A stretch of 64,000 bases of DNA from Phallusia mammillata (Eukaryota): NCBI GenBank assembly GCA_965637545.1, contig OZ281495.1, positions 28,644,001 to 28,708,000 of the forward strand, written 5' to 3'. The position numbers and the translations under genes are program-made. Below the pieces are notes generated by a model. It was not told where the DNA came from. It made no database searches and saw only the letters and a list, made by a program, of their open reading frames with translations. Positions 50,001 through 53,000 of this stretch are shown in pieces. Each line of letters opens with the position of its first letter. The stretch's first letter is position 1.

Positions 50001-53000
50001 CTCTACAGAGCAACCTTCATGTGAAGAATGCCTTGGCGAAGATGTACTTGGAGTACTTTGCGCTAGTCGCACCCCTACCACCACTCCACCCAACAACCAA
50101 CGCGATAGCCCTGCTTGTGTTAACCGTCCTACCAGTCCCCGCAGAAAACCGGCAGCTATCAGCCCGCGTGTGGTGGTGCCTTCCCCGCGAAATCCCCAAG
50201 AAATCGTCGAGAGATGTGCCGACAGTTCTGTGCGCGACAGACGGCGTGTTATCCACGACAGTCGAGAGCTGACCAGCCTGTTTAACGATCAGGTCCTACC
50301 GGAAGTTGAGCAATCCTTTTCTGATACTTGGAACGTTCTTCCGGGGGATCAGAGGTCGCAATTGATGAAACAACTCCGAGAAGCTTTACAGATGACTACT
50401 GAGCTTGTGCTACGTAACCACAGAAAGGAATACTGTCTTGGCACTACAACAGTAAACAGTTTAACTCATGTATACCCGCTTCTAATGCGTGAAGTCGAAA
50501 CTTGGCATACAACCGCTGTAAAGAAGATGACGAAAGATATTTTCCCCGATAATTGTTGGGGAGGTAACGAATGCAGCGCCAAAGCCACCATCAGCGTGCC
50601 CCTTGCTCCGACTCTGTGGGAGCCTATGAAGAATTTGATGACTGACTTCGGGGCAAGATGCGATGTTATACCGGGAGTTAGCGTCCAAGATCCCGCCACC
50701 AACTGCACTGCGATCCCCAAGGTTGAGTCGTGTCGACACCATCCTAATTCCAATTCACCACACTGTCAACCCAAGGAGTGCAAGTTTGGCTACCCTGTTG
50801 ATGTAAATGCCTTCTTCAGACACGCCAACGATTCTCAGAAGTTTCTGGAAACTGCCCTTCCACTTACTAAACCAATTACTCATAGTCTTTCCCCAGTGAA
50901 CGCTATCCGTGGACGTTTGGAGCTTTCAGTCGGTGAAAATCAACCTTTTTTAATCCAATACTCCCCGGTGCCTGAAAAAGTCAAAATCAGTTTTCATTAC
51001 ACAGCTGTGACGGAATGCAGTCTTAACGATGCAGCCTGCGCAGGGCGCGAATTTGACTGCAACCCTAGACTCGAGGAACGCATTAGCTCCTGGTTTAACT
51101 CAATCTGGGCTAAACTGACAAAGAAGACGCGGCGTTGCAAGAATCAGCTTCGCAAATACGAAAACAATATCGGCGAGGGTGGACAGCAAATGCGAAAGCG
51201 TCGGAATGCGAGCAACCAGCTTACTCTGCCGATTCCCAAGGAGTGTCGGTATGCGCGTTTGTCGGCGACGGTGCCAAGAGAACTATGGGGAGAGTTGAGA
51301 ACTAGAGCAGAGAACAGAGGCGGATCGTACGTGGACATGCCAGAGCGAATCACATTCAGATCTCTTGACAGTCTTCGCGAGTTCTTTGAAAACAAATGTT
51401 CACTGACGCCTCCTGATCCCGACAAGGCAAACTTTAAAAAAGTCTCGAAAAAGCGGAAGAAAAAGGCTGGTTCGGTAATCCGGATTTTACCATCTGATTC
51501 TCTTCCTTTTGTCATCGAGCGAGGCCGATCGTCCAACAGAATCAGGCTTCACTTCTTCACGCAACGCAAAACCCTGAATAATGGTTTGTGATTTGAGATG
51601 GCAACCCGCTGGTCGAGTTCGCAACGCCGCGAATTGGTTCGCGTATCAAGAAAAGACGTCACCACGAGCATCACCGGCACGTCACGGGCGTGTGACATCA
51701 TACATGAACTACAGGACACGTCATCAGTACTTACATCATCAACGTCATGCGTTTTTTGAACGAAAATTCACTGAGCGATTTCCGTTTTGTCGATCTGTGG
51801 ATATGTGTTTGTCATTTTTGGGCGTCCGAAGCGAAGGGAAGGGGGTTCCCTTGAGTGACGCCTAACGTGTTTTGATATTTATTTATTGTCGACGAAGTTC
51901 CAGACCGCCTGTTACGGCGTCAGTTGGACTCTCCAAGCCCACACAATGCAGAGCGACACAAACAGGGTGACTTATCCTACGTAGAGATACTTTTTATGTC
52001 GTCGTTTGTGTTCTGCTTACGTCACTGTGATGTTTTTTCGCGTCGCAAGTCACGTGAGTGCCTTTCGTCTGATTTCCAACTGAGTTTGGTTTTGCAGGCA
52101 AATACACAACATTGTTTAAGCAGCCTCCGAAAAAACACTTGCCACGATATATAGAGAGTCTCTTAAAACTTGATTTGAGGTTTCGGTTGAGACGCACTCG
52201 TATAGTATAATTGACTACCTCATAGACCGTCGCTTACAGCCGTGTTGCGCCATTATGGTTACCACGCAGTATCAACAAAAATATAAACCATTGAACAAAA
52301 ACACACGCTTTCTTATTCACTTTAGATACAAACGAAATGTAAATGCTTCACCTTGTTGCGACATTGTCCGTTCATCACTATTGCCACACCCACAAACTGC
52401 TTAGTAGCCTAATACACCAACTAGAAAAGCAACCTTTTACCTCTACTCTACAGTCAATATGCAGTGAAAAACATCCAGTATTACACAACACACTGATCAA
52501 AATGAAATGTCCGTCTTACAGAGAACTTATCTTGCAGCGCTCGCCGATTTCTTCAGTGTTTTCCTTGTTACTCGTTCATTGTACATTGTCAAATATTTTA
52601 CCACCTTTCTATAATTTGCCCTTAGCCGCTGGTGCGGTGAGTTTTTTGTGTTTTTTGGTAGCGAACGTATTCGTTCCGCTCATTCGCATTTGCCGCCTTA
52701 CTTTTCTCTCATCTCTTGTTATTTTTTTTTATTTTTTTTTCGTGTTTGTTTACCCTCCACGCAGTATAAATGTTCAATTGTCTTTCTAATAAACGTACAT
52801 GGTAAAGAAGAATTGGTCCCTATTGTGTTTGTGCCAGATTTACGAAAAGTTCACAAACGTTTGAATTCTGCCTGCAACATTTCTTCAAATAGAACGAAAA
52901 CCTTAAAAAGTGAGGTTTTATAGTTAATTTGGTAATCCTTCATTGAAGGAGATGTTGTATGTAGTAATCGAAAAGCTGGTAAAGTAGATGAACACCGCTC

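Follow-up and report, generated by a model that had tools for sequence, protein, structure and literature searches.

What does a semaphorin gene gain from a second ending, encoded by one long exon in which the same domain seems to occur twice? The question is raised by a locus of the ascidian Phallusia mammillata, within a window of 64,000 nucleotides (contig OZ281495.1, forward strand). A first-pass annotation of the DNA had noticed four collinear blocks that recur in two adjoining units, A and B, and had read them as two copies of an uncharacterised α/β domain of about 170 aa left by an old duplication. All eight block peptides are found in a 549-aa frame (49942-51591, forward strand), the sole long open reading frame near the site, and the ranges first given for the units translate to 176 aa for A and 166 aa for B. 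In window coordinates, the module is laid out as follows.

50260 to 50427, forward strand: conserved two-helix hairpin before unit A (AF2 helices 2-27 and 30-57), with no profile match to A or B.
50473 to 51021, forward strand: unit A, with the order helix-strand-helix-strand-strand-helix-four strands and a Cys-rich insert at 50668-50772.
50827 to 50835, forward strand: N-glycosylation sequon of unit A (N-x-S/T in 18 of 19 rows).
51064 to 51573, forward strand: unit B, strongly basic, with its elements in the same order as in A.
51136 to 51246, forward strand: loop of unit B between two invariant cysteines (both present in 19 of 19 rows), holding RKRR at 51193-51204.

Each unit was confirmed to have an insertion of its own, Cys-rich in A and basic and RKRR-bearing in B. 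Two variants occur among the sequencing runs in unit A (50616 and 50688), one silent and one changing Gln to His; the His form is that of the database protein P0024. The hairpin was considered as a third copy of the repeat and ruled out, its profile match to A or B being 0.1%.

The self-alignment of the two units is borderline for the single pair but significant for profiles. Compared as single sequences, A and B give a local BLOSUM62 score of 36, which 289 of 5000 shuffles reach and which is not significant, and the global and cheap-gap scores on the borders first drawn are reached by 1, 11, 21 and 64 of 5000. The profiles were made from the module of the window and 15 relatives, with 15 rows per unit. 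HHalign of A against B gives a probability of 95.5% in local mode (E 1.5e-8, 140 columns) and 96.9% in global mode; against reversed B it gives 0.3%. None of 300 B profiles shuffled by column or block attains the real score of 56.6, the highest being 39.7, and a self-comparison of the whole module run without any borders recovers the repeat as residues 46-252 against 240-439 (91%). The tandem duplication is real at the level of the family.

Identical residues occupy 25 of the 138 aligned core positions, and ten Cys, Trp or aromatic positions pair across the units. The paired residues include W83/W279, C100/C294, C106/C330, W121/W344, G132/G355, FF186-187/376-377 and PF230-231/417-418. The profile register bears out blocks 1, 2 and 4 of the first-pass annotation, while block 3 was probably placed out of register: HHalign sets CKF...AFFRH of A against ITF...EFFEN of B (F177/F367, F186-F187/F376-F377), about 10 residues off the FRH/FRS pairing proposed earlier, and the model places F187 of A in a helix and F367 of B in a strand. 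Some doubt attaches to this correction, since hmmsearch of the B profile on P0010 picked the earlier register. As for the domain length of about 170 aa, the duplication holds and the common core is refined to about 138 aligned positions.

The predicted structure agrees with the repeat. An AlphaFold model built from a 23-row alignment (mean pLDDT 82.4, pTM 0.61) consists of the hairpin followed by two units with matching order of helices and strands; from the single sequence, the prediction is uninformative (pLDDT 39). Secondary structure agrees between A and B at 111 of the 138 aligned core positions, compared with 51-94 when one unit is slid by 2-12 residues, and chains of RnlA, the AP2 appendage and BamC align to both halves of the model. 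A prediction of the module as a homodimer scored 0.00, a run in which the alignment was not used and the fold of the module itself was uncertain.

With the whole-module model, over 400 residues long, as query, none of 48161 chains matched at Z of at least 8. The best structural match is the RNase H3 N-domain (3vn5, Z 7.0, rmsd 2.1 over 55 residues); RnlA matches unit A (6y2s, Z 6.2, rmsd 3.0 over 69) and unit B (6y2q, Z 3.9 over 61). Foldseek against PDB and BFVD found no match at E 0.001 or less. KICSTOR/SZT2 and START/helix-grip proteins, the top Foldseek rows from the PDB, were tried as relatives and rejected, with rmsd of 12-29. What the units share with TBP-like and helix-grip sheets (RNase H3 N-domain, the repeated domain of RnlA, AP2 appendage platform, BamC, KA1) is a core of one strand, one helix and three strands that aligns. 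However, the Z values lie in the range that the tool associates with common arrangements, about 55-70 of some 140 core residues align at 2-16% identity, and those proteins are not glycosylated, disulfide-type animal extracellular domains. On the model, each unit would be a common TBP-like core with large insertions, and no homology is claimed.

The module is not confined to one species. A phmmer search with a single sequence (50257-51588) against 1.84 billion representatives returned 18 relatives up to E 0.001, with identities of 25-47%; 2 of them carry species names. Proteins with Sema domain and module together are known from Ciona intestinalis (XP_018669347), Clavelina lepadiformis (XP_076799945) and Styela clava (XP_077971243), each record titled "uncharacterized protein ... 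isoform X1", and from P0008. The module thus follows Sema and PSI domains in Phallusia, Ciona, Clavelina and Styela, which represent all three ascidian orders. Named relatives are all ascidian and this exhaustive search, made with one sequence and not a profile, found no named non-tunicate one; distant non-tunicate relatives may have escaped it. In a further genome with three near-identical loci, two of them (L009/L011) have Sema exons, a phase-1 acceptor starting with "EQ", just as in the window, an intronless module and, about 8.4 kb downstream of the module, a homologous transmembrane exon.

In a tree of the units, all 19 A and all 19 B sequences fall on opposite sides of one branch (100/100, with long branches), and therefore one duplication predates every sequence compared. 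Together, the profile match, this split, the ten paired positions and the confident fold model sustain the view that an old duplication left two copies of an uncharacterised α/β domain. The choice between last exons has been available since before the three ascidian orders split. Within the unit-A tree, P0009, P0011, P0014, P0016 and P0017 form a divergent subclade (95/94), four of them on long contigs, which may be paralogues or a fast-evolving lineage. The most divergent relative, P0019 (25% identity, E 2e-5), has both units and the basic loop and lacks the hairpin and the sequon. P0012 covers unit A and P0018 unit B, each on a JGI contig 2693 bases long; counted here as separate rows, the two are probably one frameshifted gene or an assembly error. 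Four protein queries of the Phallusia genome found no copies of the module beyond this locus. The same genome has 105 matches to F5/8 type C (discoidin), many on this contig, with a large exon array at G000:C4:8.66-8.83 Mb and nearby.

The gene to which the module belongs extends over a large part of the window.

22639 to 23077, forward strand: first coding exon of the semaphorin gene (tblastn of full-length P0024, residues 1-146, 99%).
42024 to 47921, forward strand: 13 exons that account for the bulk of the Sema domain and for the PSI domain, common to both isoforms (GT..AG joints in four of four runs, single stop-free frame).
50009 to 52809 (to about 52805), forward strand: alternative terminal exon with the module (phase-1 acceptor, 527 codons, stop at 51589-51591, 3′ UTR, AATAAA at 52788).
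55962 to 56103, forward strand: transmembrane exon of the other isoform (joint 47920>55961, in-frame hydrophobic helix).
57340 to 59351, forward strand: cytoplasmic exons of the membrane isoform (joints 56103>57340 and 57465>57918; contig pieces from 58715).

The last shared donor GT directly follows 47921 and is used with two acceptors, that of the module exon (50009) or that of the transmembrane exon (55962), both joints being GT..AG. These joints were read from contigs assembled from public runs; the shorter side has 29 letters, and that the runs are RNA is a guess. The joint 47920>50008 occurs in runs X2, X6 and X18, from three studies, and is absent from the DNA-like run X17; the joint 47920>55961 occurs in four of four runs of one set and in three of four (X2, X6, X18) of another, with none in X17. 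When the module exon is chosen, the frame stays open across the module until the stop at 51591, and the UTR follows; contigs of X2 and X18 stop at 52803 and 52809 and that of X17 continues past, a weak hint of a transcript end. When the transmembrane exon is chosen, an in-frame transmembrane helix is followed by a proline-rich tail that ends in the frame 58716-59351 (cytoplasmic exons followed up to 58007, with contig pieces from 58715). The P. mammillata record P0024 (1265 aa) is exactly the Sema-plus-module isoform, identical over the module (100%) and without a transmembrane helix. One donor with two alternative last-exon routes means that the gene makes a membrane form and a form that ends in a 527-aa module, and confidence in this gene structure is high. 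The module exon is intronless, and the other exons of the gene measure 69-232 bp.

Several further features of the introns and UTR may be recorded. ACGTCA(T/C) motifs cluster at 49020-49055, within the intron that precedes the module exon, and at 51660-51750, in the 3′ UTR of that exon, and may be regulatory. A GC-rich stretch of the upstream intron is single-copy in the genome, and low-depth contigs cover parts of this intron. Between the module and transmembrane exons lie short high-copy elements with inverted ends (MITE-like; 53230-53540, 54350-55160 and 55270-55600), which are covered at about 100-400-fold the background depth in the DNA-like run X17.

By its architecture and its best matches to solved structures, the gene appears to be a class-6-like semaphorin. 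The Sema part is closest to SEMA6A/6D among solved structures (E 6e-65 to 4e-63), with residues 198-713 matched by SEMA6A structures; Sema1A (2e-50) and Sema3A (3e-47) rank lower. PF01403 is listed for P0024 and is found in P0002, P0005 and P0008, and a Cys-rich PSI-type segment follows the Sema domain. The first coding exon encodes an N-terminal extension of about 113 aa and then a hydrophobic signal-type segment, after which the P0024-type protein is predicted to be cleaved. The module isoform is therefore likely to be secreted rather than held at the cell surface, as far as its sequence can tell, although the long extension before the hydrophobic segment could make that segment an uncleaved anchor. 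The extension (22639-22980, forward strand) is also seen in Ciona, Clavelina and Styela; a short motif at its very start is common to all (E-[VI]-x-x-L-R ... L-T-V-like) and the remainder is divergent. The extension could serve as a long n-region with a regulatory role, or else be a conserved leader peptide.

The conserved features of the module were counted over 20 rows, with the near-duplicates P0020-P0022 dropped and n being the rows that cover a site. Cysteines are present at six positions in 19 of 19 rows. Mean identity is 40% in unit A and 24% in unit B. The net charge of unit B (K+R minus D+E) is +23 in the window and lies between +11 and +30 in 18 of 19 rows, with a pI of about 9.7-11.6 in 18 of 19; P0016 has +2. 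The Cys-bounded loop has 5-13 residues in A (C100-C106, 5 here) versus 6-47 in B. A furin-type R-x-[KR]-R motif occurs in 11 of 19 B loops, compared with a mean of 5.1 for shuffled loops (p 0.0012, a value that overstates independence because the rows are related), and in nine of the 11 loops that carry it, the last such motif lies 13-20 residues before the closing Cys. There are 14 such motifs in 705 loop residues versus 3 in about 7600 residues outside the loop. Styela, added later, also has the motif. The eight remaining loops lack the motif, and the loop is shortened in P0016/P0017.

We take the most probable reading to be that the twin ancient copies sit in an alternative last exon, and that a transcript ending there leaves out the transmembrane and cytoplasmic exons. 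The product would be a semaphorin that is likely secreted; its basic unit B is predicted to anchor it to sulfated sugars of the matrix and to undergo cleavage by furin. The odds for this reading as a whole are about even (roughly 0.5), and the function of the module isoform is proposed with moderate confidence from sequence features and analogy. The choice of last exon yields either membrane Sema6 or an anchor-less form ending in the twin-domain module. The latter would be secreted and glycosylated, as suggested by the signal-type segment, the conserved sequon and the cysteines. Furin would then cut the loop of unit B, with a disulfide between the cysteines flanking the loop presumably keeping B whole. 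The basic face of unit B would hold the protein on sulfated glycans or glycosaminoglycan, by analogy with the basic tail of Sema3A, which binds heparin, carries furin sites, is disordered and measures 47 aa (PMC8465649, in the part available). A contact cue could in this way become a positioned long-range cue acting on plexins, without the reverse signalling of the membrane form.

Some features fit a matrix anchor less well. The Sema3A tail is disordered, whereas the module here is folded and 440 aa long, and its many conserved surface motifs go beyond what a simple anchor needs. Eight of the 19 loops have no furin-type motif, and unit B of P0016 is nearly neutral (+2). Since conservation is higher in unit A than in unit B, selection may have acted chiefly on a function of A or of the hairpin. 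The roles discussed here and below can coexist.

The module could instead be a device for oligomerisation or clustering, in which the hairpin, the twin domains or both replace clustering at the membrane and soluble Sema6 dimers activate plexin. This is a credible second choice, well short of the matrix-tethered reading. The ectodomain of Sema6A is a mixture of monomer and non-covalent dimer and class 3 semaphorins rely on a disulfide at the C-terminus (PMC6695400), and higher-order clustering is involved in plexin activation (PMC4938514), according to the parts of these papers that are available. The conserved amphipathic hairpin resembles helical dimerisation units (APS zipper, NblA; Z about 5). 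However, these are generic scores for helical hairpins, below the noise level stated for the tool, and the conserved basic surface and cleavage loop would be left unexplained.

A role as an address, by which the module binds a specific co-receptor or matrix protein, is given the same limited weight. Binding might go through a C-terminal Arg made by furin, the way class 3 semaphorins engage neuropilin. If furin cut behind RKRR, the new C-terminus would read R-x-x-R, a motif described for neuropilin binding (PMC8670474, in the part available). Unit A contains long invariant motifs, with 43 invariant columns among 10 closer sequences, and peptide-binding platforms turn up among the weak fold matches (AP2 appendage, Z 4.9 and 3.3). 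However, the available text of PMC6374515 describes neuropilins as vertebrate-only, PF11980 has no match over the cut-off in this genome, eight of the 19 loops lack the motif, and likeness of fold shows no function.

The origin of the exon invites a bolder and rather improbable suggestion, namely that ancestral ascidians took a foreign intronless coding unit, such as a viral or mobile-element glycoprotein gene, as the last exon of Sema6 and so invented a class-3-like secreted cue independently; the twin domain would then be a new extracellular fold, with furin as its switch and a co-receptor other than neuropilin as its reader. In the ESM Atlas, where all scores are under 0.9, the neighbours are viral glycoproteins at 0.77-0.83, a language-model result at the level of a lead. 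No structure in BFVD matches the module at E 0.001 or less, no convincing terminal repeats of the kind found at transposon ends flank the module exon, and exact-motif scans, which are insensitive, gave 25 pattern matches each in prokaryote genomes and viral contigs, none a relative. Searches of Pfam with the exon and the units found nothing under E 0.6, and module-only relatives had no family at the cut-off; PHROGs and NCBIfam gave 0 families for 16 members, and a sequence search of the PDB gave one match, at E 0.064. PF26709.1 is listed for P0008 and P0027 and is probably not the module, because it is not listed for the module-only proteins P0003, P0023 and P0019 or for P0002/P0024. The domain family lacks a name, and its proteins are already in databases with no name attached to the module.

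A Cys-bounded cleavage loop is typical of pro-forms. The isoform might accordingly be a soluble decoy that captures plexin, or a latent form whose Sema domain is covered by the module, with furin processing as the switch. Reverse signalling needs the cytoplasmic tail, which this isoform does not have, and a Sema6A without its tail behaved as a dominant negative (PMC4938514, in the part available). On the other hand, there is no sign of contact between Sema domain and module, and with the predicted disulfide in place the two parts would stay joined after the cut, so that cleavage would not release the module; this leaves the idea a marginal one. Last, it is scarcely conceivable that the units agree by chance or by convergence on an α/β pattern, or that the exon belongs to an unrelated gene lying inside the intron. 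The non-significant local alignment of the single pair, the 25 of 138 identities and the low-depth contigs over parts of the upstream intron speak for it; against it stand the 95-97% profile match with 0/300 shuffles, the paired Cys, Trp, Gly and PF positions, templates common to both halves, the observed splice joints and the full-length proteins of four named species.

With high confidence for the repeat and the gene structure, then, the ascidian tandem domain is real, old and ascidian-wide, and the gene is an unreported variant of semaphorin architecture. No description of the module isoform or its domain was found in the literature searched, which had supplements and subscription journals outside its scope. 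The module adds a new extracellular domain family, so far without a family name. Semaphorin classes are told apart largely by whether they are membrane-bound or secreted, and here a single class-6-like gene makes both a membrane form and a likely secreted form by its choice of last exon. Long-range semaphorin signalling without the Ig/neuropilin system becomes testable, by exon-specific probes and CRISPR, in the closest invertebrate relatives of vertebrates. Ciona Sema6 has already been studied in neuron migration and in the notochord, and probes or knockouts placed on the shared exons would mix two proteins. Expression of Ciona Sema6/Sema6a, a putative orthologue of the gene described here, is reported in neurons, nerve cord, mesenchyme and notochord (PMC7324659, PMC11728170), with no mention of isoforms in the available parts of these papers.

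Among known systems, the lineage-specific semaphorins (Sema-FN, Sema-IG and the echinoderm Sema-SP/SI) are alike in that C-terminal parts are readily exchanged, as the available text of a survey of semaphorin evolution describes (PMC6374515), but their added domains are known ones (FNIII, Ig, SEA, TSP1). Ciona or tunicates are not mentioned in the main text of that survey, as far as available, and a structural review of semaphorins lists no such domain in its available part (PMC10084454). Class 6 semaphorins (SEMA6A-D, and class 1 in invertebrates) likewise have Sema and PSI domains without Ig, followed, as in the membrane isoform, by a transmembrane helix and a long proline-rich tail. The single transmembrane helix with cytoplasmic tail and no Ig is found in the isoform spliced to 55962 and not in the module isoform. 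The difference is that the second isoform swaps helix and tail for a 527-aa folded module, of which there is no counterpart in the accessible class 6 literature searched.

Class 3 semaphorins resemble the module isoform, as it is proposed here, in having no membrane anchor, a basic C-terminal part and furin-type sites. However, the module isoform has no Ig domain (Pfam scans of the exon and of full-length relatives found no Ig family, and the model is α/β), and its Sema domain is class-6-like. Its tail is a predicted folded tandem domain, whereas that of Sema3A is a disordered region of 47 aa, and it arises from an alternative last exon rather than from a separate gene. The module isoform would work like a class 3 semaphorin and, having no Ig domain, is not a member of that class.
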